DNA from: a virus
Taxonomy: Duplodnaviria > Heunggongvirae > Uroviricota > Caudoviricetes
Strand: one strand, 5' to 3'
IMG/VR virus record: IMGVR_UViG_2721755721_000001
DNA: 64,000 nt
Position 1 is the first letter of the stretch. The number at the start of each line of letters is the position of its first letter. The position numbers and the translations under genes were made by a program. Below, one piece after another: positions 6,238 through 58,336 of this stretch. Under the pieces are notes generated by a model that was not told the DNA's origin, searched no databases, and saw nothing but the letters and a program-made list of their open reading frames with translations.

Positions 6238-6267
6238 TATGACCTCTGTTTTAAATTATAAGAGTAT

Positions 6268-7814: not shown

Positions 7815-8015
7815 TTACCCATTGGCGCGGCTTAAGAGCTTATTTTTGAATTCACAATGGTCACGATATAACCATCTTGCTCGACCGTGGATAACTTTGG
7901 CTTTTGGCAGGTCGCCGGACTTAATCCGGTCGTAGATGAAGGTTTTACCAAAGCCAGTATCGGCCATGATGAATTTCAAATCAACCAGTGAATCAGGTTG
8001 TAGTTCGTGTTGCAT
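7815..8015 (-). CDS. xis: excisionase / AlpA-like HTH DNA-binding protein (66 aa)
   Basis: Small basic HTH protein directly upstream of the integrase, GGAGA Shine-Dalgarno. Confidence 0.6.
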   Translation of the reverse strand: MQHELQPDSLVDLKFIMADTGFGKTFIYDRIKSGDLPKAKVIHGRARWLYRDHCEFKNKLLSRANG

Positions 8016-28296: not shown

Positions 28297-28743
28297 TAAA
28301 AAAAGAGCCAGCGACTGACCTGAAAGAAGACGCTGGCTAAAAGGCCTTATATGTTTGTAGAGACTTATTTTTCACAGACAGCAATGATGCCTGTCAATAT
28401 ATTATCAATATGCGGATTGTTTCAGTTACAGATGCTTTATTAAGGAAAAAAACAGCCAGCACTGACTTTCGGTGGAGAGGTGCTGGCTCAGAAGGATAGT
28501 TGGATTTCACATGATACTTATGCCTGGCGGTATATTTTCTGACAGACAGTGACGGGTGTTGTCAAGATATTGTGTCATTTATAACCTGAATCAGGGGAGG
28601 CCGGAATGTTATCTGGCATTTTTAGCAGAGCCTGAATGCCATAATCACGGCTCCCGGAGTTGGCCGTCAGTGGGTGACACTGGCGGTTTTTTTGTTTTTC
28701 TTTACTTTCATTTTCTGTCGGCGGTGACGGAGACATACATCAG

Positions 28744-28950
28744 ATGGAAAAAATCACAACGGGTGTGTCATACACCACGTCAGCGGTGGGGACGGGATAC
28801 TGGTTACTGCAGCTGCTGGACAAAGTCTCTCCGTCCCAGTGGGTGGCAATCGGTGTGCTGGGGAGTCTGCTGTTTGGCCTGCTGACGTATCTGACTAACC
28901 TTTATTTCAAGATTAAAGAAGATAAGCGTAAGGCGGCGCGGGGAGAGTAA
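28744..28950 (+). CDS. class II holin (phage-21 S-like pinholin)
   Basis: 68 aa, two TM segments, charged C-terminus [13 protein letters not shown]; precedes a SAR endolysin. Confidence 0.75.
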
Positions 28951-28954
28951 AGCG

Positions 28955-29299
28955 ATGAAGAAAAAATACGAACTGGTTGTTAAAGGGATAAATAATTACC
29001 CGGATAAGATTACTGTTACTGTGGCACTGGAAATTGGTGGGTATCCGTCACTGTTGTTGCCAAATGTGGCGATTAGTCTTGACCGTACTGAAGGTGCCAC
29101 GCTGGAGTTTTACGAAGCGGAGGCGAAAAAGCAGGCGAAGCAGTTTTTCATGGATGTTGCTGCCGGGTTATGTGAAGGGGATGGTCCGTTGCCGGAAAAG
29201 CGGCCCATCATTTTAGAGGCGCAGGATGTGTTGATAACCTACAGAGGAAAACTACCGGGAATAATTACTGGTTCTCTGAAGACTCCACCGCTGGCCTGA
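28955..29299 (+). CDS. hypothetical protein (114 aa) between holin and endolysin
   Basis: ORF only; unusual position. Confidence 0.5.
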   Translation: MKKKYELVVKGINNYPDKITVTVALEIGGYPSLLLPNVAISLDRTEGATLEFYEAEAKKQAKQFFMDVAAGLCEGDGPLPEKRPIILEAQDVLITYRGKLPGIITGSLKTPPLA

Positions 29300-29349
29300 A
29301 GACTTAACATATCCAGGGATTTGAAATCGATAAACCCTGATAAATATCC

Positions 29350-29883
29350 ATGAACACCAAAATCAAATACGGCCTGTCGGCTGCCGTTCTGGCGCTGATT
29401 GCCGCAGGTGCGCCTGCGCCTGAAATCCTCGACCAGTTTCTGGATGAAAAGGAAGGTAACCACACCACGGCATACCGTGATGGCGCGGGTATCTGGACCA
29501 TCTGCCGCGGTGCCATCCTGGTGGATGGTAAACCTGTCGTTCCGGGCATGAAGTTGTCGAAGGAAAAATGCGACCAGGTTAACGCCATTGAACGTGATAA
29601 GGCGCTGGCATGGGTGGAGAAAAACATCAAAGTGCCACTGACCGAACCCCAGAAAGCGGGGATCGCGTCATTCTGTCCGTACAACATTGGTCCCGGTAAA
29701 TGTTTCCCGTCGACGTTTTACAGACGAATTAATGCAGGTGATCGCAGGGGAGCGTGTGAGGCGATTCGCTGGTGGATTAAGGACGGTGGCAGAGACTGCC
29801 GTATTCGCTCAAATAACTGTTACGGTCAGGTATCCCGTCGCGACCAGGAGAGTGCGCTGGCGTGCTGGGGAATTGACAGATAA
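29350..29883 (+). CDS. R: SAR endolysin (T4-type lysozyme, GH24)
   Basis: N-terminal SAR segment YGLSAAVLALIAAGAPA, E-x8-D-x5-T catalytic motif (EGNHTTAYRDGAGIWT). Confidence 0.9.
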   Translation: MNTKIKYGLSAAVLALIAAGAPAPEILDQFLDEKEGNHTTAYRDGAGIWTICRGAILVDGKPVVPGMKLSKEKCDQVNAIERDKALAWVEKNIKVPLTEPQKAGIASFCPYNIGPGKCFPSTFYRRINAGDRRGACEAIRWWIKDGGRDCRIRSNNCYGQVSRRDQESALACWGIDR

Positions 29884-29972
29884 GCAGAATATTTTGCTGA
29901 AAAATGCGGTTTGCTCACACGGACGGATAACACGAAATCCTGAGAACTGACAAAAACTAAGTGAATAAAAGT

Positions 29973-30010
29973 AAAAACCCCATTTGTTGGCTGCAAGCGG
30001 GGTTTTGTGT
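29973..30010 (+). terminator. putative rho-independent terminator after the endolysin (repeated at 34865-34903)
   Basis: aaaacccc...cggggtttt stem followed by a T-rich run. Confidence 0.4.
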
Positions 30011-30181
30011 TTCCTGACTCCGGAAAAGTCAAAGGAGAAAGTGTGTTTGATTTTAGCAAACTGATTCGGGAGATTCGAGTGATGGCTGAAAAATTATCCA
30101 CCTGGAAGTTCATCCTTATCTGGCTGGTGTTTGTGATTATGGCCTCCGGTTATTTCATCGGTCAGATACGCTGGTGGTGAA

Positions 30182-30676
30182 ATGAACCGCGTACTGTGCG
30201 TGGTCATCATTGCCCTGCTGGTGGCCTGTGGTGCGCTTAGTCTGGGGCTGAATCATTACCGTGATAACGCCATAACCTACAAAGAGCAGCGCGATAAAAA
30301 AGTCAGTGAGCTGGAGCTGGCAAATGCAACCATTACTGATATGCAGCAGCGCCAGCGTGATGTTGCTGCACTTGATGCCAGATACTCGAGGGAATTAGCC
30401 GATGCGAGAGCTGAAAATGAAACTCTTCGCGCTGACGTTGCCGCTGGTCACCGCAGCCTGCGGATCAACGCCACCTGTCCAGGTCCCGTGCGTGAAGCCA
30501 CCGGCACCGCCCGCGTGGATAATGCAACCGGCCCCCAACTGGCAGACACCGTTACACGGGATTATTTCACCCTCAGAGAGCGGCTGATGACGATGCAGAA
30601 GCAACTGGAAGGGGCACAGGACTATATCCGCACTCAGTGTACTAAGCAGGCTTTTTATTATCCGGAGGATGTATGA
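30182..30676 (+). CDS. Rz: Rz i-spanin
   Basis: N-terminal TM, coiled-coil; embedded Rz1 in +1 frame. Confidence 0.8.
   Translation: MNRVLCVVIIALLVACGALSLGLNHYRDNAITYKEQRDKKVSELELANATITDMQQRQRDVAALDARYSRELADARAENETLRADVAAGHRSLRINATCPGPVREATGTARVDNATGPQLADTVTRDYFTLRERLMTMQKQLEGAQDYIRTQCTKQAFYYPEDV
30402..30587 (+). CDS. Rz1: Rz1 o-spanin lipoprotein (embedded in Rz)
   Basis: Lipobox LVTAAC, proline-rich. Confidence 0.6.
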   Translation: MRELKMKLFALTLPLVTAACGSTPPVQVPCVKPPAPPAWIMQPAPNWQTPLHGIISPSESG

Positions 30677-30897
30677 AGAAATTACAGGTAACGGTAAAAC
30701 CTTTTCAGGGAACAATTCCGTTCCGTGTTTTGCAACATGGCCGTGTTCTGCTTGAAGAGGTGTTCAGAGGTAAATGCACTGAATGTTATTCACGAACATA
30801 TGAAGTGAATGCCACGCATGAAGAATTCACCGTTGAGTGTGTGATGAATACTGATAAATGCCGAATGGTATCCGCTGAATTACAGCCAGTGTGTTGA
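30673..30897 (+). CDS. hypothetical protein (74 aa) after Rz
   Basis: ORF coupled to the Rz stop; conserved in the second copy at 35756-35980. Confidence 0.45.
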   Translation: MKKLQVTVKPFQGTIPFRVLQHGRVLLEEVFRGKCTECYSRTYEVNATHEEFTVECVMNTDKCRMVSAELQPVC

Positions 30898-31256
30898 GCG
30901 ACCTTATTATCCATGCGCGGTATTGTCGCCGTATTCCTGCATTAACAGAGACCGCAGCCCGACAGGGCGACTCCTCTGCGGGAGTGTGCGGGGATAATCA
31001 AAAACGATACACACCGGGGTTTACCGCGTAAACGGAGCGCGGCGTTCTCCCCTCATGGTCGCCCGTCCGGTGCGATGGTGGAAGAAACTGGAATCTGTTC
31101 AATAAAAAAAACTGCCGTGTTGGAGTCACAGCAGTAATGTACTGATTGGGTAGAAGATTATTATTGTTATGCTTTATTCTTATTCTATATGGCTGATTAT
31201 TTGGTAACCGGCTCATTTAAACCGTCTGGTCTGTTTCCTCCGGCTCTACAAAAATA

Positions 31257-31934
31257 ATGTCCATCATTTTTAATGGACACTATCGTATGAAACACCGGAC
31301 CTGGATCACTGAAGCTTTACGTCTTCACTTTGAAGAACATTTACCCCGGGTTGTGGCCGGGCGTCGCCTGAGTGTACCAAAATCAACAGTTTGTAGTATG
31401 TTCGTGCGCTTTCGGAGAGCTGGCCTTTCGTGGCCTTTGCCCGCAGGCATGTCGGAGCAGGAACTTGATGCCTGCCTTTACGGACAATTTTCCACGGTAC
31501 CAGTCGTACGTCCTGAAAGCACCGTTATATCCGAAGCCCCCGTGGTAAAAAAACGTCCCCGGCGGCCCAACTTCCCTTATGAGTTTAAAATCGCCTTAGT
31601 GGAGCAGTCACTACAGCCCGGAGCCTGTGTGGCGCAGATCGCCCGGGAAAACGGAATCAACGATAACCTGCTCTTCAACTGGCGCCATCAATACCGGAAA
31701 GGTGGCCTGCTGCCTTCCGGAAAAAATATGCCGGCACTGCTTCCCGTGACGTTAACGCCGGAGCCGGATAATAAAATCCCGGCCCCCGCACAGGAACCAG
31801 AGCAGATAAATACACCGTCCGACAGTCTGTGTTGTGAGCTGGTTCTGCCGGCCGGAACTCTCAGGCTTAAAGGTAAACTGACGCCGGCGTTATTACAGAC
31901 ACTTATCCGCGAAATAAAAGGGAGCAGCCACTGA
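31257..31934 (+). CDS. tnpA: IS66-family accessory protein TnpA (orf1)
   Basis: First ORF of the IS66 triad. Confidence 0.7.
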   Translation: MSIIFNGHYRMKHRTWITEALRLHFEEHLPRVVAGRRLSVPKSTVCSMFVRFRRAGLSWPLPAGMSEQELDACLYGQFSTVPVVRPESTVISEAPVVKKRPRRPNFPYEFKIALVEQSLQPGACVAQIARENGINDNLLFNWRHQYRKGGLLPSGKNMPALLPVTLTPEPDNKIPAPAQEPEQINTPSDSLCCELVLPAGTLRLKGKLTPALLQTLIREIKGSSH

Positions 31935-32281
31935 TGATATCTCTCCCTGCAGGTTCGCGTATCTGGCTGGTTGCAGGTATCACCGATATGCGAAATGGCT
32001 TTAACGGCCTGGCATCAAAAGTTCAGAACGTCCTGAAGGATGACCCGTTCTCCGGACACCTGTTCATCTTCCGCGGACGCCGGGGTGACCAGATAAAAGT
32101 GTTGTGGGCTGACAGTGACGGACTGTGCCTCTTCACCAAACGCCTGGAGCGGGGCCGCTTCGTCTGGCCAGTCACCCGTGACGGCAAGGTGCACCTTACT
32201 CCGGCTCAGTTATCCATGCTTCTTGAAGGTATCAACTGGAAGCACCCGAAACGAACGGAACGCGCTGGAATCCGCATATAA
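31934..32281 (+). CDS. tnpB: IS66-family TnpB (orf2)
   Basis: 115 aa, ATGA overlap with orf1, typical IS66 orf2. Confidence 0.8.
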   Translation: MISLPAGSRIWLVAGITDMRNGFNGLASKVQNVLKDDPFSGHLFIFRGRRGDQIKVLWADSDGLCLFTKRLERGRFVWPVTRDGKVHLTPAQLSMLLEGINWKHPKRTERAGIRI

Positions 32282-32300
32282 CCCGTTGTAAAGTGAGGAT

Positions 32301-33872
32301 ATGGACACCTCACTTGCTCATGAGAACGCCCGCCTGCGGGCACTGTTGCAGACGCAACAGGACACCATCCGCCAGATGGCTGAATACAACCGCCTGCTCT
32401 CACAGCGGGTGGCGGCTTATGCTTCCGAAATCAACCGGCTGAAGGCGCTGGTTGCGAAACTGCAACGTATGCAGTTCGGTAAAAGCTCAGAAAAACTTCG
32501 TGCAAAAACCGAACGGCAGATACAGGAAGCACAGGAGCGAATCAGCGCACTTCAGGAAGAAATGGCGGAAACGCTGGGTGAGCAATATGACCCGGTACTG
32601 CCATCCGCCCTGCGCCAGTCTTCAGCCCGTAAACCGTTACCGGCCTCACTTCCCCGTGAAACCCGGGTTATCCGGCCGGAAGAGGAATGCTGTCCTGCCT
32701 GTGGTGGTGAACTCAGTTCTCTGGGATGTGATGTGTCAGAGCAACTGGAGCTTATCAGCAGCGCCTTTAAGGTTATCGAAACACAACGTCCGAAACAGGC
32801 CTGTTGCCGGTGCGACCATATCGTGCAGGCACCAGTACCTTCAAAACCCATTGCACGCAGTTATGCCGGAGCGGGGCTTCTGGCCCATGTTGTCACCGGG
32901 AAATATGCAGACCATCTGCCGTTATACCGCCAGTCAGAAATATACCGTCGTCAGGGAGTGGAGCTGAGCCGTGCCACACTGGGGCGCTGGACAGGTGCTG
33001 TTGCTGAACTGCTGGAGCCGCTGTATGACGTCCTGCGCCAGTATGTGCTGATGCCCGGTAAAGTCCATGCTGATGATATCCCCGTCCCGGTCCAGGAGCC
33101 GGGCAGCGGTAAAACCCGGACAGCCCGGCTGTGGGTCTACGTCCGTGATGACCGTAACGCCGGTTCACAGATGCCCCCGGCGGTCTGGTTCGCGTACAGT
33201 CCGGACCGGAAAGGTATCCATCCACAAAATCACCTGGCCGGTTACAGCGGTGTGCTTCAGGCCGATGCTTACGGTGGTTACCGGGCGTTATACGAATCCG
33301 GCAGAATAACGGAAGCCGCGTGTATGGCTCATGCCCGGAGAAAAATCCACGATGTGCATGCAAGAGCGCCCACCTACATCACCACGGAAGCCCTGCAGCG
33401 TATCGGTGAACTGTATGCCATCGAGGCAGAGGTCCGGGGCTGTTCAGCAGAACAGCGTCTGGCGGCAAGAAAAGCCAGAGCCGCGCCACTGATGCAGTCA
33501 CTGTATGACTGGATACAGCAACAGATGAAAACACTGTCGCGTCACTCAGATACGGCAAAAGCGTTCGCATACCTGCTGAAACAGTGGGATGCACTGAACG
33601 TGTACTGCAGTAATGGCTGGGTGGAAATCGACAACAACATCGCAGAGAACGCCTTACGGGGAGTGGCCGTAGGCCGGAAAAACTGGATGTTCGCGGGTTC
33701 CGACAGCGGTGGTGAACATGCGGCGGTGTTGTACTCGCTGATCGGCACATGCCGTCTGAACAATGTGGAGCCAGAAAAGTGGCTGCGTTACGTCATTGAA
33801 CATATCCAGGACTGGCCGGCAAACCGGGTACGCGATCTGTTGCCCTGGAAAGTTGATCTGAGCTCTCAGTAA
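32301..33872 (+). CDS. tnpC: IS66-family transposase (TnpC)
   Basis: 523 aa; leucine-zipper N-terminus, CPACGG/CCRCDH zinc-finger region, DDE-type core. Confidence 0.9.
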
Positions 33873-33902
33873 ATATCAATACGGTTCTGACGAGTCGCTT
33901 AC

Positions 33903-34193
33903 ATTACTGTTACTGTGGCACTGGAAATTGGTGGGTATCCGTCACTGTTGTTGCCTGATGTGGCGATTAGTCTTGACCGTACTGAAGGAGCCACGCTGGA
34001 GTTTTACGAAGCTGAGGCGAAAAAGCAGGCGAAGCAGTTTTTCATGGATGTTGCTGCCGGGTTATGTGAAGGGGATGGTCCGTTGCCGGAAAAGCGGCCC
34101 ATCATTTTAGAGGCGCAGGATGTGTTGATAACCTACAGAGGAAAACTACCGGGAATAATTACTGGTTCTCTGAAGACTCCACCGCTGGCCTGA
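33903..34193 (+). pseudogene. 5'-truncated second copy of the 114-aa holin-endolysin intergenic gene
   Basis: Homology to copy A resumes at 29009 = 33903, mid-gene, immediately after the IS66 right end. Confidence 0.7.
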
Positions 34194-34243
34194 AGACTTA
34201 ACATATCCAGGGATTTGAAATCGATAAACCCTGATAAATATCC

Positions 34244-34777
34244 ATGAACACCAAAATCAGATACGGCCTGTCGGCTGCCGTTCTGGCGCTGATTGCCGCA
34301 GGTGCGCCTGCGCCTGAAATCCTCGACCAGTTTCTGGATGAAAAGGAAGGTAACCACACCACGGCATACCGTGATGGCGCGGGTATCTGGACCATCTGCC
34401 GCGGTGCCATTCTGGTGGATAGTAAACCTGTCGTCCCGGGCATGAAGTTGTCGAAGGAGAAATGCGACCAGGTTAACGCCATTGAACGTGATAAGGCGCT
34501 GGCATGGGTGGAGAAAAACATCAAAGTGCCACTGACCGAACCCCAGAAAGCGGGGATCGCGTCATTCTGTCCGTACAACATTGGTCCCGGTAAGTGTTTC
34601 CCGTCGACGTTTTATAAACGAATTAATGCAGGTGATCGCAGGGGAGCGTGTGAGGCGATTCGCTGGTGGATTAAGGACGGTGGCAGAGACTGCCGTATTC
34701 GTTCAAACAACTGCTACGGTCAGGTATCCCGTCGTGACCAGGAGAGCGCGCTGGCGTGCTGGGGTATCGACAGATAA
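34244..34777 (+). CDS. R: SAR endolysin, second (divergent) copy
   Basis: 177 aa, 3 substitutions versus copy A. Confidence 0.85.
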   Translation: MNTKIRYGLSAAVLALIAAGAPAPEILDQFLDEKEGNHTTAYRDGAGIWTICRGAILVDSKPVVPGMKLSKEKCDQVNAIERDKALAWVEKNIKVPLTEPQKAGIASFCPYNIGPGKCFPSTFYKRINAGDRRGACEAIRWWIKDGGRDCRIRSNNCYGQVSRRDQESALACWGIDR

Positions 34778-35258
34778 GCAGAATATTTTGCTGAAAAATA
34801 AAGCATGGCCACGCGGGCGGATAACATGAAATCCTGCGAACTGGCGAAACGTAAGTGAATAAAAGTAAAAACCCCGTTTGTTGGCACCAAGCGGGGTTTT
34901 GTGTTTCTGACCTTGAGTAAGGCAAGGGAGAACATGGCGAAGTATAAACGAATTCTGTTGAGGTTGACCATGAAAAACGGCCTTGAACTGAAAGCGCCTG
35001 TAACTGATGACATCAGCAGAGCACTGGCTTTTGCCATTAAGTGGGTGGCGGTCGGTGTTGCTGTGTCCCCGATGCTGTATGGGCTGGCAAAACTGGTCAT
35101 TGCGTTGAAATCGTGAAGGGAGGATTAAGCATGTCAGACAAACTCATAACGCTGGCGAAGATCCTCTGTGTAATTGTCGGCATTTCATTTTCACTAATGC
35201 TGGTTGCTCTTTTTCTTTCCATGGCCTGGATGATGTTGTCTTCGTCGGGGCTGCTGGG

Positions 35259-35759
35259 GTGAACATAAACCGAATGCTTTCCGCGTTTATCGTTATTCTG
35301 CTGGTGGCCTGTGGTGCGCTGTGGATGGCAACAGACCATTACCGTGATAACGCGATTACCTACAAAGCGCAGCGCGATAACAAAGCCAGTGAACTGAAGC
35401 TGGCGAACGCAACCATTACTGATATGCAGGTGCGCCAGCGCGATGTTGCTGCGCTCGATGCAAAATACTCGAGGGAATTAGCCGATGCGAGAGCTGAAAA
35501 TGAAACTCTTCGCGCTGACGTTGCCGCTGGTCGTAAGCGCCTGCGGATCAACGCCACCTGTCCAGGCTCCGTGCGTGAAGCCCCCACCACCTCCGGCGTG
35601 GATAATGCAACCGGCCCCCGACTGGCAGACACCGCTGAACGGGATTATTTCATCCTCAGAGAACGGTTGATGACAATGCAGAAGCAGCTGGAAGGGGCGC
35701 AGGAATATATCCGCACTCAGTGCACTAAGCTGGCTTTTTATTATCCGGAGGATATATGA
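35259..35759 (+). CDS. Rz: Rz i-spanin, second copy (divergent N-terminus)
   Basis: 166 aa; embedded Rz1 at 35485-35670. Confidence 0.8.
35485..35670 (+). CDS. Rz1: Rz1 o-spanin lipoprotein, second copy
   Basis: Lipobox LVVSAC, Pro-rich. Confidence 0.6.
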
Positions 35760-35980
35760 AGAAATTACTGGTAACCGTAAAGCCTTTTCAGGGAACAATT
35801 CTGTTCCGTATTTTGCAGCGTGGTCGTGTTCTTGTTGAAGGTTCGTTCAGTGGTAAATGTACGCAATTACACTCCCGGACCTTTCAGGTGAATGCCACGA
35901 ATGAAGAGCTAACCGTTGAGTGTACGATGAATGCCGCTAAATGCCGCATGGTATCCGCTGCATTACAGCCAGTGTGTTGA
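35756..35980 (+). CDS. hypothetical protein (74 aa), second copy
   Basis: Paralogue of 30673-30897. Confidence 0.45.
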
Positions 35981-36312
35981 GCGACCTTATTATCCATGCG
36001 CGGTATTGTCGCCGTATTCCCGCATTAACAGAGACCGCAGCCCGACCGGGAGACTCCTCTTCGCGAGTGTGCGGGGATAATCAAAAACGATACACACCGG
36101 GGTTTACCGCGTTAACGGAGCGCGGCGTTGCCCCTCATAGTCGCCTGTCCGGTGCGATGGTGGAAGAAGCCGGACGATGTGTTACCTCGCAAGCCCTGTT
36201 ATGTGTCTGATTTGTGATTTAAGTCGGATAATTGTCGTTGCCATCAAGCAGAGGATTGATGACCGACAGGGTGGCATTGTTAGAATAAGACTTATTCTTA
36301 TCTGTGCCGGGA

Positions 36313-36645
36313 ATGAAAATGAAAAGAAATCTTCCGTTAATTATTTTGTTGTCTTCTCTGGTTATGGGCTGTACGCAACATAAAACAGATATGCCCCGAC
36401 AATTGGTGAAGGCATTACCACAATATCCGGCCTATGCAGCGGCAAATTATATAAAGGGACGGGTTGATGTGAAGTTTGATATTGGTGCTGATGGTACTGT
36501 CACCCGAATTGAGTTTATCCGTTCAGAGCCGCACCATCTGTTTGATGAGCAGGTTGTAAAGGCGATGGCAAAATGGCGATTTGAGAAGGACAGGCCGCGT
36601 AAAGGCGTGAAGAAAACGTTTATCTTTAGTCCTTCTGCACCCTGA
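36313..36645 (+). CDS. lipoprotein with TonB C-terminal-like domain
   Basis: Signal peptide plus lipobox LVMGC; YPAYAAANYIKGRVDVKFDIGADGTVTRIEFIRSEP...FDEQVVKAMAKWRFE resembles the TonB_C fold motif. Confidence 0.6.
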   Translation: MKMKRNLPLIILLSSLVMGCTQHKTDMPRQLVKALPQYPAYAAANYIKGRVDVKFDIGADGTVTRIEFIRSEPHHLFDEQVVKAMAKWRFEKDRPRKGVKKTFIFSPSAP

Positions 36646-36776
36646 TTATTTCATCAGAAATTAATTATCACTCTGTTGTTATTCTGTACATCCCGGCTGG
36701 GTAAGTCTTGTTCCGCCGGGTATGAAGATGAAATATTGTTGGAGGACAGTGGGTACCTGCTCCTGTAACCGAACGT

Positions 36777-36977
36777 TCATTTCTCGTTATTTGTCATGCT
36801 GGCCGTACGCAGATGCGTTGCATCTGTTGCCAGCCTTCTCCTGCAGGCTTCAATAACCCACGCTGAAAAGTTACCGGACCCTTTATGCTCAAGGGCGATG
36901 TTGATCTGTTCAATCATCTGGTTTGGAAATCGGATGTTGCGGGTTGTTGTTCTGCGGGGCCGGTTTTTCGATGACAT
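36777..36977 (-). CDS. ylcI: YlcI/YnfO-family prophage protein
   Basis: MSSKNRPRRTTTRNIRFPNQMIEQINIALEHKGSGNFSAWVIEACRRRL. Confidence 0.7.
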   Translation of the reverse strand: MSSKNRPRRTTTRNIRFPNQMIEQINIALEHKGSGNFSAWVIEACRRRLATDATHLRTASMTNNEK

Positions 36978-37018
36978 TTTCTTTCCTCTGGTGACAAGCT
37001 ATATGGCGAGGATTTTAC

Positions 37019-37384
37019 ATGGCTGTGCTTCGTACGTTACCGGGCAGAATCAAAACTCTGAACACCCGGCGGGTGAATGTCCTGAAGGGTGAACAGCGTC
37101 GTGTCAGTGGCAGTGCACGTGTTTCCCTCAAGCGTCATATCTGGCTCAGGGATGCCGGGCAGTGCTGTCTCTGTGGTCGTGTGGTTGACCTCTGTGACAG
37201 TGAACTCGATCACCGAATTGCACTTCAGTTCGGTGGTGGTAATGAGGAGACGAATCTCTGGACGCTCTGTACCGAATGCCATCGACAAAAGTCTGCTCGT
37301 GAAGCGGCGGGTGGTATGCCGGACCCGACGCTGCCGGAGGTGTCCGGAGGTCATGGCAGGGCAGACGATATCATCGGACTGTGA
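37019..37384 (+). CDS. HNH endonuclease (terminase-associated)
   Basis: CCLCG...DHRIALQFGG...NLWTLCTECHRQK HNH motif; upstream of terS. Confidence 0.8.
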   Translation: MAVLRTLPGRIKTLNTRRVNVLKGEQRRVSGSARVSLKRHIWLRDAGQCCLCGRVVDLCDSELDHRIALQFGGGNEETNLWTLCTECHRQKSAREAAGGMPDPTLPEVSGGHGRADDIIGL

Positions 37385-37476
37385 CCCGCCCCGGGGGGGG
37401 GATCATCCGGCGAAAAAAACGATCGCTCCGGACACCGCCCCCCCTCTCATGCAGAGAAAAAATTCCTGTTTCAGGG

Positions 37477-37604
37477 CAGTTAACATGTTAACTGGCTGCC
37501 CGGGCATTTTTGCGGTTTTTATCTTTATTATTCAGTTTGTTGTGCGAAAAAAATGTTAACTGGCTTTTTCAGCAAATGTTAACCAAGCAGCAGTTAACAT
37601 TTGC
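37477..37604. repeat. cluster of TGTTAAC-centred palindromes in the HNH-terS intergenic region (putative cos/terminase recognition)
   Basis: cagttaacatgttaactg (18-bp perfect palindrome), aaatgttaactggc, gcaaatgttaac-N9-gttaacatttgc; a G9 tract lies at 37393-37401. Confidence 0.5.
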
Positions 37605-37674
37605 GGCATGAGACGCCGGGAAAAATGGGCTGAACCATACCCGGCTGAGTGCGTTCTGGACCCGGGAGGAGGCT

Positions 37675-38238
37675 GTGCTGACAACGCAAAAACGAAAATT
37701 TGCGCTGGCGCTCATGTCCGGGAAAAACAAAACAGCGTCAGCCATTGCCGCCGGTTATTCGGCGAAGACCGCCAGGGTTAAAGGCTCGCAGCTGGCAAAA
37801 GATCCGGAGGTGCTCGCGTTTATAGCCCGTAAACAGTGCGAGACGGTGGAGGTGGATGAGGTTCCTGTTTACCGGCAGAAAAAATCAGAGCAGGAGGATA
37901 AACCCCGTCGCCGTGAGGTGGCTGCAATACCACAGCCGGACGAAAACAATCCGGAGATGCCACCGTCCGCGGTGATGTCTCCTGGTATTGAATATATGGA
38001 GGATGGTCTTCCCGATCCGGTGAAAGCCATGGGGCGGATCCTGGTGGAAAACCTCTGCATTGATCCGAAACTGGCACTGGATGCGGCCTGGCGTCTGGCG
38101 CAGTTCACGCACCATAAAAAAGGCGATGCCGGTAAAAAATCGGCAAAAGGTGATGCCGCGAAAAAAGCGGCTAACCGTTTTGCGGTGCCACCACCTCCCC
38201 GGCTGGTGGTGAATAACCAGAATGAGGAAAGCGGATGA
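37675..38238 (+). CDS. terminase small subunit (P27/HK97-like)
   Basis: MLTTQKRKFALALMSGKNKTASAIAAGYSAKTARVKGSQLAK... Confidence 0.8.
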   Translation: MLTTQKRKFALALMSGKNKTASAIAAGYSAKTARVKGSQLAKDPEVLAFIARKQCETVEVDEVPVYRQKKSEQEDKPRRREVAAIPQPDENNPEMPPSAVMSPGIEYMEDGLPDPVKAMGRILVENLCIDPKLALDAAWRLAQFTHHKKGDAGKKSAKGDAAKKAANRFAVPPPPRLVVNNQNEESG

Positions 38239-39896
38239 TACCTGTATGGAGCACGGCATGTCCGGACTGGGCAGAGCGCCTGCAAAAGGGACTGTCGATT
38301 ATTCCGGCTCCGATTTATCCGGACCAGGCTGCACATGCCCTGGCGATTTTTAAACAACTGCGGATTGTGGATGCACCGGGTAGCCCGACGTTCGGGGAGT
38401 CCTGCGCACCGTGGGTGTTTGACCTGGTGGCGGCCCTGTTTGGCTCCTATGATGCGCAGACCGGTGTACGCCATATCAAGGAAGTGTTTATCCTTATCCC
38501 CAAGAAAAACAGTAAGTCCACGCTGGCCGCGGGGATCATGATGACGGCGCTGTTACTGAACTGGCGGCAGGCGGCGGGCTACACCATTCTGGCCCCGACC
38601 GTGGAGGTGGCGGCCAACGCCTTCAACCCTGCCAGGGATATGGTGCGACGGGACGATGATCTGGATGACCTCTGTCAGGTGCAGACACATATCCGGACCA
38701 TCACCCATCGGGTGACGGACACCACCCTGAAGGTGGTGGCAGCCGATCCGAATACGGTGTCCGGTATCAAGTCCGTGGGGACACTGATTGATGAACTGTG
38801 GCTGTTTGGCAAGCAGTACAAAGCGGAAGACATGCTACGTGAAGCCATCGGCGGGCTTGCCTCCCGTCCGGAAGGATTTGTGGTGTACACAACCACCCAG
38901 TCGAATGAGCCGCCAGCCGGGGTGTTCAGACAGAAACTGCAGTACGCCCGGGATGTCCGTGACGGCAAAATTCATGATCCGCACTTTCTGCCGGTGATAT
39001 TTGAACACCCTCCTGAAATGGTGGAAAGCGGGGCTCACCTGCTGATGGAAAACCTCGCCATGGTTAACCCGAATCTCGGTTATTCGGTGGATGAGGCTTT
39101 TCTGTACCGGGAGTACCGTAAAGCCCGGGAGGCTGGTGAGGAAGCATTTCGTGGCTTCATGTCAAAACACGCCAATGTGGAAATCGGTCTTGCCCTGCGT
39201 TCTGACCGCTGGGCGGGCGCGGATTTCTGGGAGCAGCAGGGCAGGCGCGTCAGCCTGGACGATATCCTGCAGCGCGCTGATGTGGTGACGGTGGGGATTG
39301 ACGGCGGGGGCCTGGATGATCTGCTGGGAATGTACGTGACTGGCCGTGACAGGGAAACCCGCGAATGGCTGGGCTGGGGCCATGCCTGGGTGCATGAAAC
39401 CGCGGTGGTCAGACGGAAGAGTGAGGCATCCCGGTTTCAGGATTTTGTGGCCTGTGGAGACATGACGATTGTCCGTCGGGTCGGGGATGACACGGCGGAA
39501 GTGGCGGAGTATGTGCGTCGTATTCATGAGGCTGAGTTACTGGACCATATCGGTATTGACCCGTCAGGGGTGGGGCAGATTCTGGATTCACTGGCGGAAG
39601 CCGGGATCCCCGATGAGAGTGTGGTGGGGATAAGCCAGGGCTGGAAGCTGGGCGGGGCCATCAAAACCACCGAGCGCAAACTGGCTGAAGGGGTGCTGAT
39701 TCACGGTGATCAGCCCCTGATGGCCTGGTGTGTCGGTAATGCCCGGGTGGAGCCTAAAGGTAACGCCATTCTTATCACCAAACAGGCCAGCGGACGGGGA
39801 AAAATTGACCCGCTGATGGCGCTCTTCAATGCGGTGTCCCTGATGTCCCTTAACCCGGAACCGAAAAAGAAAGCGTATGAGGTTTTTTTCATATAA
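38235..39896 (+). CDS. terminase large subunit (complete copy)
   Basis: 553 aa, ATGA-coupled to terS; ATPase and nuclease regions. Confidence 0.9.
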   Translation: MIPVWSTACPDWAERLQKGLSIIPAPIYPDQAAHALAIFKQLRIVDAPGSPTFGESCAPWVFDLVAALFGSYDAQTGVRHIKEVFILIPKKNSKSTLAAGIMMTALLLNWRQAAGYTILAPTVEVAANAFNPARDMVRRDDDLDDLCQVQTHIRTITHRVTDTTLKVVAADPNTVSGIKSVGTLIDELWLFGKQYKAEDMLREAIGGLASRPEGFVVYTTTQSNEPPAGVFRQKLQYARDVRDGKIHDPHFLPVIFEHPPEMVESGAHLLMENLAMVNPNLGYSVDEAFLYREYRKAREAGEEAFRGFMSKHANVEIGLALRSDRWAGADFWEQQGRRVSLDDILQRADVVTVGIDGGGLDDLLGMYVTGRDRETREWLGWGHAWVHETAVVRRKSEASRFQDFVACGDMTIVRRVGDDTAEVAEYVRRIHEAELLDHIGIDPSGVGQILDSLAEAGIPDESVVGISQGWKLGGAIKTTERKLAEGVLIHGDQPLMAWCVGNARVEPKGNAILITKQASGRGKIDPLMALFNAVSLMSLNPEPKKKAYEVFFI

Positions 39897-39920
39897 CCCT
39901 GCTCACCCTGTAACCATCAT

Positions 39921-39945
39921 GAACCGCTGCGGCGGTTTTTTTATT
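39921..39945 (+). terminator. hairpin plus T-run after terL (repeated at about 41750-41775)
   Basis: accgctgcggcggtttttttatttt. Confidence 0.45.
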
Positions 39946-39959
39946 TTCAGGAGGCTGAT

Positions 39960-40544
39960 GTGACTCTTAAACGGGCCTGTTCCCTGCTGACGGTGAAATC
40001 CTTCAGTGAGGATGAGCGGGTGATCACCGGGATTGCGTCAACGCCTTCTCCGGATCGGGATGGTGACATCCTGGAGCCGGAGGGCGCGGAGTTTGGCAGT
40101 GCGATCCCGTTTCTCTGGCAGCATGACCATTCCCGCCCGGTGGGGCAGTGTACGGTGCGCCGGGTCAGCGAAGGGCTGGAAATCACGGCAACACTGGCGA
40201 AGCCCGTGCCGGATATGCCATCGCAACTGGTTGCCCGGCTGGATGAGGCCTGGGCGGCCATTAAGACCGGGCTGGTCAGGGGGCTTTCCGTGGGCTTCCG
40301 TCCCCATGAATACACCTTTCTGGACGGAGGCGGACTGCATTTTCTGCGCTGGGAACTGATGGAGGTGTCTGCCGTCACCGTGCCCGCGAATGCGGAATGC
40401 ACCATCCGGACCATTAAATCTTACGACCGCCCGTTTTCTGCACTAACGCCTTCAACCCTGCCAGGGATATGGTACGACGGGACGATGATCTGGATGACCT
40501 CTGTCAGGTGCAGACACATATCCGGACCATCACCCATCGGGTGA
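39960..40544 (+). pseudogene. truncated prohead protease fragment (first copy), broken at the duplication junction near 40443
   Basis: First about 160 aa match the N-terminus of the 645-aa protease-capsid protein; the reading frame then runs into the duplicated terL segment. Confidence 0.7.
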
Positions 40545-41725
40545 CGGACACCACCCTGAAGGTGGTGGCAGCCGATCCGAATACGGTGTCCGGTATCAAG
40601 TCCGTGGGGACACTGATTGATGAACTGTGGCTGTTTGGCAAGCAGTACAAAGCGGAAGACATGCTACGTGAAGCCATCGGCGGGCTTGCCTCCCGTCCGG
40701 AAGGATTTGTGGTGTACACAACCACCCAGTCGAATGAACCGCCTGCCGGGGTGTTCAGACAGAAACTGCAGTACGCCCGGGATGTCCGTGACGGCAAAAT
40801 TCATGATCCGCACTTTCTGCCGGTGATATTTGAACACCCTCCTGAAATGGTGGAAAGCGGGGCTCACCTGCTGATGGAAAACCTCGCCATGGTCAATCCG
40901 AATCTCGGTTATTCGGTGGATGAGGCTTTTCTGTACCGGGAGTACCGTAAAGCCCGGGAGGCTGGTGAGGAAGCATTTCGTGGCTTCATGTCAAAACACG
41001 CCAATGTGGAAATCGGTCTTGCCCTGCGTTCTGACCGCTGGGCGGGCGCGGATTTCTGGGAGCAGCAGGGCCGTTGTATCAGCCTGGACGATATCCTGCG
41101 TCGTGCTGATGTGGTGACGGTGGGGATTGACGGCGGAGGGCTGGATGATCTGCTGGGAATGTACGTGATTGGGCGTGACCGGGAGACCCGCGAATGGCTG
41201 GGCTGGGGCCATGCCTGGGCGCATGAAACCGCGGTGGTCCGACGGAAGAGCGAGGCGTCCCGGTTTCAGGATCTTGTTGCCTGTGGAGATATGACCATTG
41301 TCCGGCGTGTCGGGGATGACACGGCGGAAGTGGCGGAATATGTGCGTCGCATTCATGAGGCTGAGTTACTGGACCATATCGGTATTGACCCGTCAGGGGT
41401 GGGGCAGATTCTGGATTCACTGGCGGAAGCCGGGATCCCCGACGGAATTGTGGTGGGGATAAGCCAGGGCTGGAAACTGGGCGGGGCCATCAAAACCACC
41501 GAGCGCAAACTGGCTGAAGGGGTGCTGATTCACGGTGATCAGCCCCTGATGGCCTGGTGTGTCGGTAATGCCCGGGTGGAGCCTAAAGGTAACGCCATTC
41601 TTATCACCAAACAGGCCAGCGGACGGGGAAAAATTGACCCGCTGATGGCGCTCTTCAATGCGGTGTCCCTGATGTCCCTGAATCCGGAACCGAAAAAGAA
41701 AGCGTATGAGGTTTTTTTCATATAA
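40469..41725 (+). pseudogene. partial second copy of terL (C-terminal 418 aa, no N-terminal ATPase start)
   Basis: About 95% identical to terL residues from about 129 to the end; begins at the junction. Confidence 0.7.
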
Positions 41726-41788
41726 CCCTGCTCACCCTGTAACCATCATGAACCGCTGCGGCGGTTTTTTTATTTTCAGGAGGCTGAT

Positions 41789-43726
41789 GTGACTCTTAAA
41801 CGGGCCTGTTCCCTGCTGACGGTGAAATCCTTCAGTGAGGATGAACGGGTGATCACCGGGATTGCGTCAACGCCTTCTCCGGATCGGGATGGTGACATCC
41901 TGGAGCCGGAGGGGGCTGAGTTTGGCAGTACGATCCCGTTTCTCTGGCAGCATGACCATTCCCGCCCTGTAGGACAGTGTACGGTGCGTCGGGTCAGGGA
42001 AGGGCTGGAAATCACGGCAATGCTGGTGAAGCCGGAGCCGGGGATGCCCTCCCAGATGGCAGCCCGGCTGGATGAGGCCTGGGCTGCCATTAAGACCGGG
42101 CTGGTCAGGGGGCTTTCTGTGGGCTTCCGGCCCCATGAATACACTTATCTGGACGGAGGCGGACTGCATTTTCTGCGCTGGGAGCTGATGGAGGTGTCTG
42201 CCGTCACCGTGCCCGCGAATGCGGAATGCACCATCCGGACCATTAAATATTTCGACCGCCCGTTTTCTGCCGCGTCCGGCAACCGGAAACCGGTGGTGAA
42301 AATCGCATCTTCTGCCGGCGCTGCGGCACAGTCAATAACCTCTTTTCATAAGGAAAAGTCAGCAATGAATACTGGTGAACAGATTAAAAGTTTTGAAAAC
42401 AAGCGTGCGGCGCTGGCAGCCTCCCTTGAGGAGATCATGAACAAAGCCGCAGAGGAAGGCCGCACACTGGATGTGGAAGAGGAAGAGCACTACGACAACA
42501 CCGCAGCGGAAATCCGTCAGGTGGATGCGCACCTGAAGCGTCTGCGTGAACTGGAAACCAGTAAGGCCGCCACGGCACAGCCGGTGAAACAGGCCGGTAA
42601 CGGGAATGTGGCCACGGTGGCTTCAGCGCCGGTGATCCGTGTTGAGCAGAAACTGGAGAAGGGGATTGGTTTCGCCCGCTTTGCCAAATCACTGGCCGCG
42701 GCTAAAGGTGTCCGCTCTGAAGCCCTGGAAGTGGCCCGTCGTCAGTATCCGGATGACAGCCGTCTGCATCATGTCCTGAAATCGGCGGTGGGGGCAGGGA
42801 CCACCACGGACCCACAGTGGGCAGGCAGCCTGTCTGAATATCAGGAATATGCGCAGGACTTTATTGATTACCTGCGTCCGCAGACCATTATCGGGCGATT
42901 TGGTCAGGGCGGGATCCCTGCACTTCGTCAGGTGCCGTTCAATATCCGCGTGCATGCCCAGGTGTCCGGCGGTGCTGCCAGCTGGGTGGGGGAGGGTAAG
43001 GCCAGACCCCTGACGAAGTTTGATTTTGAGTCCATCACCTTCAGTCATGCGAAGGTGTCGGCCATTGCGGTACTGACGGAAGAGCTGATCCGTTTTTCCA
43101 GTCCGGCAGCTGATGCGCTGGTCCGTAATGCGCTGGCAGAAGCGGTGGTGGCGCGTCTGGACACAGACTTTGTGGACCCGAAAAAAGCCGCAGTGGCAGA
43201 TGTCTCCCCGGCGTCCATCACCCATGATGTGAAGGGCACGGCATCAACCGGTAACCCGGATGCGGATGCCGAGGCGGCGTTTGGCCAGTTTGTGGCAGCA
43301 AACCTGCAGCCCACCGGTGCGGTCTGGCTGATGTCCAGCACCAATGCCCTGGCACTGTCCATGCGTAAAAATGCGCTGGGTCAGAAGGAATACCCGGACA
43401 TGACCCTGCTGGGTGGCTCCTTCCAGGGGCTGCCGGTGATTGTCTCCCAGTACGTGGGTGACCAGCTGGTGCTGGTGAATGCCCCGGATATTTATCTGGC
43501 GGATGACGGCGGTGTGGCAGTGGATATGTCCCGTGAAGCGTCACTGGAAATGCAGTCTGAGCCGGGCGGCGACAGCACCACACCGTCGCCGGTGGAGCTG
43601 GTTTCCATGTTCCAGACCGGCAGCGTGGCCATCCGTGCGGAGCGCTGGATCAACTGGCGTCGTCGCCGTACTGCGGCGGTGGCTGTGATCACCGGTGTGA
43701 ACTACGGCAGTGCGTCCGGCGGCTGA
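41789..43726 (+). CDS. HK97-family prohead protease fused to major capsid protein (645 aa)
   Basis: N-terminal protease domain, linker, C-terminal HK97-fold capsid region. Confidence 0.8.
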   Translation: MTLKRACSLLTVKSFSEDERVITGIASTPSPDRDGDILEPEGAEFGSTIPFLWQHDHSRPVGQCTVRRVREGLEITAMLVKPEPGMPSQMAARLDEAWAAIKTGLVRGLSVGFRPHEYTYLDGGGLHFLRWELMEVSAVTVPANAECTIRTIKYFDRPFSAASGNRKPVVKIASSAGAAAQSITSFHKEKSAMNTGEQIKSFENKRAALAASLEEIMNKAAEEGRTLDVEEEEHYDNTAAEIRQVDAHLKRLRELETSKAATAQPVKQAGNGNVATVASAPVIRVEQKLEKGIGFARFAKSLAAAKGVRSEALEVARRQYPDDSRLHHVLKSAVGAGTTTDPQWAGSLSEYQEYAQDFIDYLRPQTIIGRFGQGGIPALRQVPFNIRVHAQVSGGAASWVGEGKARPLTKFDFESITFSHAKVSAIAVLTEELIRFSSPAADALVRNALAEAVVARLDTDFVDPKKAAVADVSPASITHDVKGTASTGNPDADAEAAFGQFVAANLQPTGAVWLMSSTNALALSMRKNALGQKEYPDMTLLGGSFQGLPVIVSQYVGDQLVLVNAPDIYLADDGGVAVDMSREASLEMQSEPGGDSTTPSPVELVSMFQTGSVAIRAERWINWRRRRTAAVAVITGVNYGSASGG

Positions 43727-54626: not shown

Positions 54627-54861
54627 AAAGAATAAAAAAATCCCGCAGAGTTGCGGAACTGAGGGAGCGTTACGAAGATTAAGTGTAAGGAATTATTCTT
54701 ATGTCACGACAAAAAACATTAACGCAGAGAAATTATTAGCACCACAGTCAGTTTGTAAAAATGTGAAGATATTCAGAAGTTTTATTCAGTGATGATACAG
54801 GCATCCTCAGGGATGCCTGTTGTTTTTGTGCGTAACAGTTATCACAGTAAAGGGTGAGACA

Positions 54862-56754
54862 ATGGGCAAAGGTGGCGGCAAGGCGCACACACCGCGCGAG
54901 GCGAAGGACAATCTCAAATCCACGCAGATGATGAGTGTGATTGATGCGATTGGTGAGGGACCGATAGAAGGCCCGGTGAAAGGCCTGCAGAGTATTCTGG
55001 TGAACAAAACCCCGCTGACGGACACGGACGGTAATCCCGTGATACACGGTGTGACGGCGGTCTGGCGCGCCGGGGAGCAGGAGCAGACACCACCGGAAGG
55101 CTTTGAGTCCTCCGGAGCTGAAACCGGACTGGGCGTGGAAGTGACGAAGGCAAAACCGGTGACGCGCACCATTACGTCTGCGAACATTGACCGCCTGCGG
55201 GTTACCTTCGGGGTGCAGTCACTGGTGCAGACCACGTCAAAGGGCGACCGTAATCCTTCCTCTGTCCGGATTCTGATTCAGTTACAGCGTAATGGCCGCT
55301 GGGTGACGGAAAAGGACGTCACCATTAACGGCAAGACCACCTCACAGTTCCTGGCCTCGGTGATTCTGGAGAATCTGCCTCCCCGGCCCTTTAACATCCG
55401 GATGGTCAGGGAGACGGCGGACAGCACCACGGACCAGCTGCAGAATAAGACGCTCTGGTCGTCATACACCGAAATCATCGATGTGAAACAGTGCTACCCG
55501 AACACGGCCATTGTGGGGCTGCAGGTGGATGCGGAGCAGTTCGGCGGCCAGCAGATGACGGTGAACTACCATATCCGCGGTCGCATCATTCAGGTACCGT
55601 CAAACTATGACCCGGAAAAACGCACGTACAGCGGCATCTGGGACGGCAGCCTGAAACCGGCATACAGCAACAACCCGGCCTGGTGCCTGTGGGACATGCT
55701 GACTCACCCGCGCTACGGCATGGGAAAACGCCTGGGGGCCGCGGATGTGGACAAGTGGGCGCTGTATGCCATCGGGCAGTACTGTGACCAGCGTGTCCCG
55801 GACGGCTTCGGAGGGACAGAGCCGCGGATGACCTTTAATGCGTACCTGTCACAACAGCGTAAGGCGTGGGACGTTCTCAGTGATTTCTGCTCGGCGATGC
55901 GCTGTATGCCGGTATGGAACGGCCAGACGCTGACGTTCGTTCAGGACCGCCCGTCGGATGTGGTGTGGCCGTACACCAACAGCGATGTGGTGGTGGATGA
56001 TAACGGCGTGGGGTTCCGCTACAGCTTCAGCGCCCTGAAGGACCGCCACACGGCGGTGGAGGTGAATTACACCGACCCGCAGAACGGCTGGCAGACCTCC
56101 ACGGAACTGGTGGAAGACCCGGAAGCCATACTGCGCTACGGGCGCAACCTGCTGAAGATGGATGCGTTCGGTTGCACCAGTCGCGGTCAGGCCCACCGTG
56201 CCGGGCTGTGGGTGATAAAGACCGGACTGCTGGAAACGCAGACGGTGGATTTCACGCTCGGGTCACAGGGGCTGCGTCACACACCCGGTGACATTATTGA
56301 AATCTGTGATAACGACTATGCCGGGACCATGACCGGCGGACGTATCCTGTCCATCGATGCCGCCAGCCGCACCCTGACACTGGACCGTGAGGTGACCCTG
56401 CCGGAGACCGGTGCCGCCACGGTGAACCTGATTAACGGCAGCGGTAAGCCGGTGAGTGTGGACATCACCGCACACCCCGCGCCGGACCGGATACAGGTCA
56501 GCACCCTGCCTGATGGTGTGGAGACATACGGTGTATGGGGACTATCCCTGCCGTCACTGCGCCGTCGCCTGTTCCGCTGTGTCTCCGTCCGGGAAAACAC
56601 GGACGGCACCTTTGCCATCACGGCGGTGCAGCACGTACCGGAAAAAGAAGCCATCGTGGATAACGGTGCCCGCTTTGAGCCGCAGTCAGGCACCCTGAAC
56701 AGCGTCATCCCTCCGGCAGGTGCAGCACCTGACGGTGGAGGTGAGCGCAGCTGA
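54862..56754 (+). CDS. J: host specificity protein J, N-terminal part (frameshifted)
   Basis: [22 protein letters not shown]... resembles lambda J; frame ends shortly after ...SVIPPA. Confidence 0.8.
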
Positions 56755-58336
56755 CGGCCAGTATCTGGCGCAGGTGAAATGGGACACGCCGCGGGTGGTG
56801 AAGGGCGTGCGCTTCAGTCTGCGCCTGACCAGTGGAAGCGGTCAGGACAGCCGTCTGGTGACCACCGCCATCACCGCGGATACAGAGCACCGTTTCAGCG
56901 GTCTGCCGCCGGGGGAATACACCCTGACGGTCAGGGCGATTAACAGTTATGGCCAGCAGGGGGAACCGGCCACCACCACGTTCAGGATTAATGCACCTGC
57001 GGTACCCGCCACGATTGAGCTGACACCGGGCTATTTTCAGATAACAGCGGTCCCGCGTCTTGCGGTGTATGACCCGACGGTACAGTTTGAGTTCTGGTTT
57101 TCGGAGACAAAAATCGCAGATACATCTCAGGTGGAAACCTCTGCCCGTTATCTGGGGACCGGCAGTCAGTGGAGTGTATCCGGCCCGCACATTAAGCCCG
57201 GGAAGGATTTCTGGTTTTACGTGCGCAGCGTCAACCTGGTGGGGAAATCTGCTTTTGTGGAAGCCAGTGGCCGGGCCAGCAATGATGCAGAAGGGTATCT
57301 GGGGCTGTTTCGGGAAAAAATAGGAAAACTGCATCTGGCTCAGGGGCTGTGGGAGCTGATAGACAACAGCCAGCTTGCGGATGAGATGGCGGAGATGAAG
57401 ACCACCATCACAGAAACCCGCAATGAAATCACGCAGACGGTCAGTAAAACCCTGGAAGACCAGAGTGCCACCATACAGCAGATACAGCGGGTGCAGACAG
57501 ACACAAATAACGACCTGGCTGCGCTGTATATGCTGAAGGTGCAGAAAACGAAAAACGGCATTCCGTATGTTGCCGGTATAGGTGCGGGGATTGAGGATGC
57601 TGATGGCCAGCCCCTGAGCAATATTCTGCTGCAGGCAGACCGTATCGCGATGATTAACCCGGAGGACGGCAACAGCACGCCGTTATTTGTGGCGCAGGGG
57701 AATCAGTTGTTCATGAACGATGTGTTCCTGAAGCGGCTGTTTGCGGTGAGTATCACCTCGTCCGGCAATCCCCCGACGTTTTCCCTGACGCCGGAGGGCA
57801 GGCTGACCGCAAGAAATGCTGATATCAGCGGTAACGTGAATGCGAATTCCGGGACGCTCAACAACGTCACGATTAACGAGAACTGTCGGGTTCTGGGAAA
57901 ACTGTCCGCGAACCAGATTGAAGGCGATCTCGTTAAAACAGTGGGCAAAGCTTTCCCCCGGGATTCCCGTGCACCGGAGCGGTGGCCATCAGGGACCATT
58001 ACCGTCAGGGTTTATGACGATCAGCCGTTTGACCGGCAAATTGTTATTCCGGCGGTGGCATTCAGCGGCGCTAAACATGAGAGAGAGCATACTGATATTT
58101 ACTCCTCATGCCGTCTGATAGTGCGGAAAAACGGTGCTGAAATTTATAACCGTACCGCGCTGGATAATACGCTGATTTACAGTGGCGTTATTGATATGCC
58201 TGCCGGTCACGGTCACATGACGCTGGAGTTTTCGGTGTCAGCATGGCTGGTAAATGACTGGTATCCCACAGCAAGTATCAGCGATTTGCTGGTTGTGGTG
58301 ATGAAGAAAGCCACCGCAGGCATCAGTATCAGCTGA
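56720..58336 (+). CDS. J: host specificity protein J, C-terminal part (continues in another frame)
   Basis: [28 protein letters not shown]... continues lambda J homology to a conserved C-terminus. Confidence 0.8.

Follow-up and report, generated by a model that had tools for sequence, protein, structure and literature searches.

Two divergent lysis cassettes on either side of ISCro1 in a prophage of Escherichia coli S50: a probable recent non-homologous join of two lambdoid genomes

In the late region of a lambdoid prophage of Escherichia coli S50, two divergent copies of the lysis cassette lie on either side of ISCro1, an intact insertion sequence (IS) of the IS66 family. The prophage was analysed within IMG/VR record IMGVR_UViG_2721755721_000001, a stretch of 64,000 nucleotides (nt) of Caudoviricetes DNA (hereafter, the window) that contains a P4-like satellite, one lambdoid prophage and the start of intS (Table 1). 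The window is 100% identical over 20.3 kilobases (kb) to E. coli S50 (CP010238.1; GCA_001901405.1), and the best match to positions 28400-36600 in the complete-genome RefSeq E. coli set is only 96% identical. A previous reading of the letters alone (the original prediction) had described two divergent cassettes around an IS66-family element, and both are present with the gene content it listed.

The first copy, cassette A, is complete and comprises a P21-type holin, DUF1327/YdfR, a predicted signal-anchor-release (SAR) endolysin, the spanins Rz and Rz1, and a gene of 74 amino acids (aa; ORF74). Cassette B, as had been predicted, starts in mid-gene exactly at the right end of the IS and has no holin: its first base, immediately after the IS terminus (...GAGTCGCTTAC followed by ATTACTG), is nt 55 (codon 19) of ydfR, so that the first 54 nt of the gene are missing, and all downstream genes are intact. 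The holin of cassette A is therefore the sole holin of the doubled region. Rz1 lies within Rz in the +1 frame in both cassettes. The endolysin matches PF00959 (T4-lysozyme fold); its N terminus is Gly/Ala-rich, hydrophobic and SAR-like (YGLSAAVLALIAAGAPAP), and the E-8-D-5-T triad is legible in the sequence.

Comparison of the window with itself returned three repeat pairs in 64 kb, two of them forming the doubled lysis cassette and one the terL/capsid region described below. Positions 29009-30018 of cassette A align with 33903-34911 of cassette B at 96.2% identity over 1,010 nt, and positions 30170-31086 align with 35253-36168 at 87.5% over 921 nt. Taken together, the cassette repeats contain identical runs of up to 246 base pairs (bp). 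Weaker homology extends to 31092 and 36174, slightly beyond the cassette ends first proposed (31088 and 36140), and the 111 nt left before the IS (31093-31203) belong to the spacer that normally separates ORF74 from ynfO in A-type phages. The segments between the two blocks (spacers A and B) are unrelated. At the protein level, identical residues number 91/92 for YdfR, 174/177 for the endolysin, 130 of 161-164 for Rz, 53/61 for Rz1 and 55/74 for ORF74, which bears out the claim that the endolysins are nearly identical while Rz and the segment before it differ. Most differences between the copies are synonymous; the endolysin genes, for example, differ at 15 nt but the proteins at only 3 aa.

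Each copy has far closer relatives elsewhere than its neighbour in S50. Across 3.5 kb (33903-37392), cassette B shows 0 differences from intact single B-type cassettes in four genomes (L045-L048), which run in the order holin, full-length ydfR, endolysin, two small open reading frames (ORFs), Rz/Rz1, ORF74, TonB_C gene, ynfO, HNH and terS; both small ORFs of spacer B are likewise found in intact B-type cassettes of other genomes. Collinearity with B-type prophages extends over the whole right arm (33903-58000) and was seen in 1,229 genomes. Cassette A is 99.1% identical overall to F8704-2, with one mismatch over the 1.6 kb between 29566 and 31202. Positions 30950-31202 match 100% in both F8704-2 and Z1323HEC0393, where the A-type spacer runs on into ynfO, HNH and terS; homology to the window ends at 31202. 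Because the differences are mostly synonymous and each cassette is nearly identical to cassettes elsewhere, A and B are, as judged from their sequences, independent natural alleles that predate their union, not sequencing errors, and they were brought together recently.

Table 1. Features of the window at and around the two lysis cassettes, with coordinates in the 64,000-nt stretch
Feature	Position	Strand	Details
P4-like satellite	1 to ~7.7 kb (1-7750)		Adjoins torI end of the lambdoid prophage; also has AlpA
Satellite primase	784-3456		TOPRIM/DUF927
Satellite integrase	6268-7602		
torI-like excisionase (xis)	7815-8015	-	Start of the lambdoid prophage
Class II (phage 21 type) holin	28744-28950	+	PF04971 Phage_holin_2_1, E=1.2e-32
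ydfR_A (DUF1327)	28955-29299	+	Full length, 114 aa; PF07041, E=3e-45
Endolysin A	29350-29883	+	177 aa; Phage_lysozyme, PF00959
Spacer A	30019-30169	+	151 nt; gap in pairwise BLAST; unrelated to spacer B
Rz_A	30182-30676	+	164 aa; PF03245
Rz1_A	30402-30587	+	Embedded in Rz_A; PF06085
ORF74_A	30673-30897	+	74 aa; without Pfam family
A-type spacer, ORF74 to ynfO	30898-31202	+	Uninterrupted into ynfO/HNH/terS in other strains
Single G	31203	+	Between A-type flank and first IS base
ISCro1 (IS66 family)	31204-33902	+	Intact, 2,699 bp
tnpA	31257-31934	+	225 aa
tnpB	31934-32281	+	115 aa
tnpC	32301-33872	+	523 aa
ydfR_B, truncated	33903-34193	+	From nt 55; residual ORF 33915-34193, 92 aa
Endolysin B	34244-34777	+	177 aa; 3 aa different from endolysin A
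Spacer B	34912-35252	+	341 nt; two small membrane-type ORFs (34934-35116, 35131-35262)
Rz_B	35274-35759	+	161 aa; PF03245 (precomputed match for the 161-aa product)
Rz1_B	35485-35670	+	Embedded in Rz_B; PF06085
ORF74_B	35756-35980	+	74 aa
B-type continuation	35981-38238		TonB_C lipoprotein, ynfO, HNH, terS
TonB_C lipoprotein gene	about 36319-36645	+	
ynfO/DUF3950	36777-36977	-	
HNH	37019-37384	+	
terS	37675-38238	+	
Second join, tandem divergent duplication	38616-42270	+	terL/capsid; 4.3 kb downstream
intS (start)	62843-64000		Far end of the prophage

The IS at the joint carries the Pfam domains PF01527, PF05717 and PF13007/PF13005/PF03050/PF13817 (TnpB_IS66 and DDE_Tnp_IS66 being present) and is 99.9% identical to RefSeq-named ISCro1-family elements that carry 8-bp duplications. 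Its terminal repeats (GTAACCGGCTC... and ...GAGTCGCTTAC) are imperfectly inverted, start with GTAA and match at 16 of their first 22 bases. The ends of the element were set from three insertions elsewhere whose duplications are 8 bp long (GTTTATAG, GTTAAAGG and one with a single mismatch); ISCro1 copies with an 8-bp target-site duplication include those in L002, L004, L018 and L019. At the joint the flanks are ATTATTTG and ATTACTGT, which match at 5 of 8 positions and do not form a target-site duplication. To the left of the IS lies the ordinary ORF74-ynfO spacer of an A-type phage; the sequence to its right is B-type ydfR. The joint copy belongs to the IS66 family (ISCro1) but is not a simple insertion; the original prediction was also right that the doubled cassette is not a simple target duplication, as each allele is nearly identical to cassettes elsewhere, the flanks are non-collinear and the duplicated target is missing.

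One base at the left junction stands apart: a single G (31203) separates the A-type flank from the first base of the IS. At the matching position, a G is also found beside the other four ISCro1 copies of S50. Among 1,113 matching uninterrupted sites, found in 544 genomes, G never occurs at this position, and the ten sites that were read individually carry C; on this count, the G was judged not to be a known polymorphism of the A-type spacer. Conceivably, the base was carried over from a donor site.

In total, S50 has five ISCro1 copies, which do not differ at a single base; the list was retrieved by identical TnpA, so a sixth, variant copy is possible. The four copies away from the joint are simple insertions with matching flanks and duplications of 8, 8, 9 and 6 bp, the 6-bp case having been compared with an uninterrupted relative. 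The 9-bp and 6-bp target duplications (L020 and L021, at 3.53 Mb and 4.30 Mb of CP010238.1), found instead of 8 bp, reflect either genuine variation or small indel errors where IS and target meet. No reciprocal IS junction or reciprocal pair of flanks was found among the five copies. An inversion between two distant prophages was rejected on this ground and because both ends of the prophage fit one locus.

The evidence for a single locus comes from the two ends. The same P4-like element and torI occur in Z1322HEC0003 beside csc/dsdA, and intS occurs in Z1323HEC0393 beside tRNA-Arg and yfdC; KplE1-type prophages at argW are bounded by torI and intS. Because the torI side and the intS side match a single chromosomal locus, the lambdoid prophage forms a single unit (about 56 kb) at the argW/KplE1 locus, extending from torI through the early-left genes, cI/cro, O/P, nin, Q and the late region to intS.

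A second out-of-register join lies downstream of the first, in the terL/capsid region. Copy 1 (38616-40441) and copy 2 (40445-42270) are 96.3% identical over 1,826 nt without indels. Copy 1 consists of the 3' 1.28 kb of terL and the first 482 nt of the capsid gene, and copy 2 (40443/40445-42270) has the same terL/capsid content in a different allele; in the terL part, 38 nt differences lead to 8 amino-acid changes. Compared with relatives, the junction reads from capsid sequence (...TTTCTGC) through one filler A at 40442 into terL from about nt 379 (CTAACGCC...), and there is no IS, homology or repeat at the joint. Copy 1 retains an intact terL and copy 2 an intact capsid gene, and no gene has been lost. 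The 418-aa and 194-aa ORFs at this join had no record in an exact-protein look-up. Copy 2 is contiguous with its right flank, and the allele is 99.85-100% identical to prophage L016 to about 540 nt past the end of the repeat. The idea that the phage to the right of this join was the natural partner of the A-type arm found no support, as its best match, L016, has a B-type cassette.

We searched for the arrangement in other genomes and in metagenomic collections. Neither the 8.2-kb region as arranged in S50 nor either of its IS junctions nor the terL/capsid junction was recovered from 5,426 complete E. coli genomes, the exact junction strings of both joins were absent from IMG/VR, and the terL/capsid junction was also absent from JGI metagenome contigs. 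Double cassettes were found in 0 of 50,697 phage records. Genomes that matched with high coverage (H1, H4 and others) proved to have single cassettes near an unrelated ISCro1 insertion. An exact look-up of the 92-aa truncated YdfR returned the S50 genome as well as draft contigs L008-L015, which might have indicated a rearrangement hotspot in ydfR; this was rejected, as these short-read contigs or scaffolds break, hold runs of N or are misjoined at ydfR nt 57-66, the boundary at which prophage copies within one genome start to share sequence. One of the drafts (L012) has parE-like sequence fused to ydfR at nt 57-66.

Taken as a whole, the locus probably represents a genuine and, in evolutionary terms, very recent union of two lambdoid genomes by a non-homologous, ISCro1-associated join, a reading drawn from the sequences and their relatives. 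The left arm would come from an A-type lambdoid phage and extend through a complete phage-21-type cassette to the spacer after the 74-aa gene, where ISCro1 would couple it to a B-type right arm that starts inside ydfR and supplies an endolysin, spanins, the cos region, terminase, and head and tail genes. Because the flanks of the IS come from two different target sites, the join would have been made by the IS and not by homologous recombination between the phages, and several orders of events could lead to it. ISCro1 of one phage may have transposed into the other intramolecularly, producing an adjacent deletion in a tandem double lysogen; a cointegrate may have formed between the two phage genomes and later been resolved by homologous recombination elsewhere, in the left arms; or two ISCro1 copies, one per phage, may have recombined. 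These three routes are indistinguishable, as each gives the same product.

In map terms, the A breakpoint lies 2.2 kb downstream of the B breakpoint. Because it lies beyond the B breakpoint, all genes are kept, and the endolysin, Rz/Rz1 and ORF74 are doubled alongside one holin. The prophage is accordingly expected from its sequence to encode one pinholin, two SAR-type endolysins and two spanin pairs. There is probably only one cos region, which related phages suggest would be flanked by the HNH gene and terS in the B arm. The late transcript would carry the IS and truncated ydfR after the lysis genes and before those for packaging. The hybrid is likely to be unstable: RecA-mediated recombination between the 1.0-kb (96%) or 0.9-kb (87.5%) direct repeats would delete 4.9-5.1 kb including the IS, leaving a clean in-register A/B mosaic.

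Several observations count against a real and recent join. Both IS junctions and the second join are known from one assembly only; its record, NZ_CP010238.1, was in RefSeq in 2019 and is absent from the complete-genome RefSeq set that we searched. The G at 31203 does not fit a clean insertion. Neither presumed parental state was seen in these searches, be it an ISCro1 flanked by a duplication in the A spacer or one in ydfR at ATTACTGT, and the presence of two very rare joins within 9 kb points to either a single complex event or faulty data. The original prediction had left the choice between a recombination scar and an assembly chimera. Independent alleles and an IS set between A-type and B-type flanks support the former, and we consider the latter unlikely. 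A chimera would require two ISCro1-bearing prophages between whose IS copies the assembler crossed, or direct copies between which it dropped DNA, and some points speak for it: the IS is a 2.7-kb repeat with five identical copies, a classic place for a misjoin; the arrangement occurs in a single assembly whose record is no longer in the RefSeq complete set; and a 1-nt insertion in gpJ relative to its relatives indicates that the consensus is not flawless. However, a swap of flanks needs an IS copy with the complementary flanks, and all four other copies have matching duplications. The torI-side and intS-side ends belong to one chromosomal locus, both flanks of the joint are error-free copies of natural alleles, and the contig crosses three IS elements (including ISCro1 and IS1) as well as 96%-identical kilobase repeats, implying reads longer than the IS. 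Finally, repeat collapse cannot give the terL/capsid join, because there is no repeat at that junction.

The proximity of the two joins raises a different possibility, that positions 31203-40442 (9.24 kb, made up of ISCro1 and 6.5 kb of B-type DNA) moved once into a recipient prophage and replaced about 2.3 kb, in an event that could have begun with transposase cleavage at the left end of the IS followed by end-joining or template switching. The joins are 9.2 kb apart and both otherwise unseen, which suggests linkage; each outer junction has one untemplated base (G at 31203 and A at 40442); and both joins duplicate sequence and do not delete it. We nevertheless hold this to be improbable, about as much so as the chimera. 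Sequence to the right of 40443 is nearest to L016 (99.85-100%), which has a B-type cassette, and not to relatives of the A-type arm; two sequential joins fit the data equally well; and, to our knowledge, no IS66-family element mobilises flanking DNA. Were it true, an IS66-family element would have served as a vehicle for homology-independent transfer of whole lysis, cos and terminase modules from phage to phage, and the locus would be an untrimmed intermediate of that transfer. By far the least credible origin is a tandem duplication of the cassette in place, for example IS-mediated between sister chromosomes, with later divergence. It would account for the collinear gene order of the copies and for the IS at their joint, but it is refuted by the closeness of each copy to cassettes of other genomes (100% for B and about 99% for A, against 96.2% and 87.5% between A and B). 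The spacers are moreover unrelated, the module types differ after A (ynfO spacer type) and after B (TonB_C gene), and no second IS follows copy B.

A join of two lambdoid genomes by ISCro1, the reading that we prefer, has partial counterparts among known systems. In O157 Sakai, chimeric lambdoid phages form between the co-resident prophages Sp5 and Sp15 by homologous in-register exchange (Asadulghani et al. 2009, PMC2669165). As in those chimeras, a new genome has arisen in S50 from two lambdoid prophage arms, with the crossover between the Q/lysis and terminase genes. Unlike those scarless products, the S50 join is out of register, lies at an IS terminus and has doubled 2.2 kb of genes. Nor was an in-register join inside shared sequence, of the Sakai type, found at the second S50 join, which has no homology and one filler base. 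IS copies without duplications are common at prophage deletions, where they result from adjacent deletion or IS-IS recombination. The S50 joint resembles such IS-mediated deletions, among them the apparent one in L026, in its unrelated flanks, the missing duplication and the position of the IS between modules that are not normally neighbours; it differs in that these deletions usually lose genes, whereas the S50 breakpoints overlap, nothing is lost and the cassette is partly doubled from two alleles. A simple ISCro1 insertion is present in the Stx1a prophage of E. coli O103:H2 strain 129 (NZ_AP038976.1), where the same IS (99.9%) lies in the same gene, ydfR, in the same orientation and about 30 bp upstream of the S50 junction. 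That copy, unlike the one in S50, has a perfect 8-bp duplication (GTTAAAGG), collinear flanks and one cassette, and there is no hybrid.

Under the illegitimate-recombination model of phage mosaicism (Hendrix/Hatfull school), joints form without homology, products that keep or duplicate genes are favoured, and the joints are tidied later. Both S50 joins have the predicted form. The model usually rests on ancient, trimmed joints, whereas those of S50 are untrimmed and their flanks are identical to living relatives. The S50 locus is a fresh instance of a known process, and what is unusual is the duplicative, untrimmed join with a second homology-free join nearby. Mosaic joints in lambdoid phages are almost always seen late, trimmed and in register, and this locus appears to be an unresolved intermediate with an active IS between two natural alleles; if confirmed, S50 would allow a direct test of joint resolution and of ISCro1-driven prophage exchange. 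On the practical side, annotation pipelines will list the endolysin and spanin genes twice and ydfR as truncated at such a locus, and short-read assemblies will break there.

Two further ISCro1 insertions and a few features of the right arm deserve mention. The copy in the O103:H2 strain 129 Stx1a prophage (L004, 3452-6150) is an independent insertion in the first 32 nt of ydfR, and the 5' end of this gene may be a favoured ISCro1 target. In L026 (5948-8646; GCA_001264175.1), the flanks of ISCro1 are unrelated (GTACAAGC and TTGCGTGG), with a prophage integrase on one side and terS on the other; most of a prophage appears to have been lost in an IS-associated deletion. In the window itself, the tail-tip gene J (gpJ; 54820-58336) is split into ORFs of 644 and 538 aa by an extra G at 56719 relative to two relatives, a probable frameshift that is either real or an error of the assembly consensus. 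An IS1 copy (~60.9-61.6 kb) followed by an OspG/NleH-type effector kinase gene (61785-62375) sits between the tail-fibre genes and intS, as in O157 prophages.

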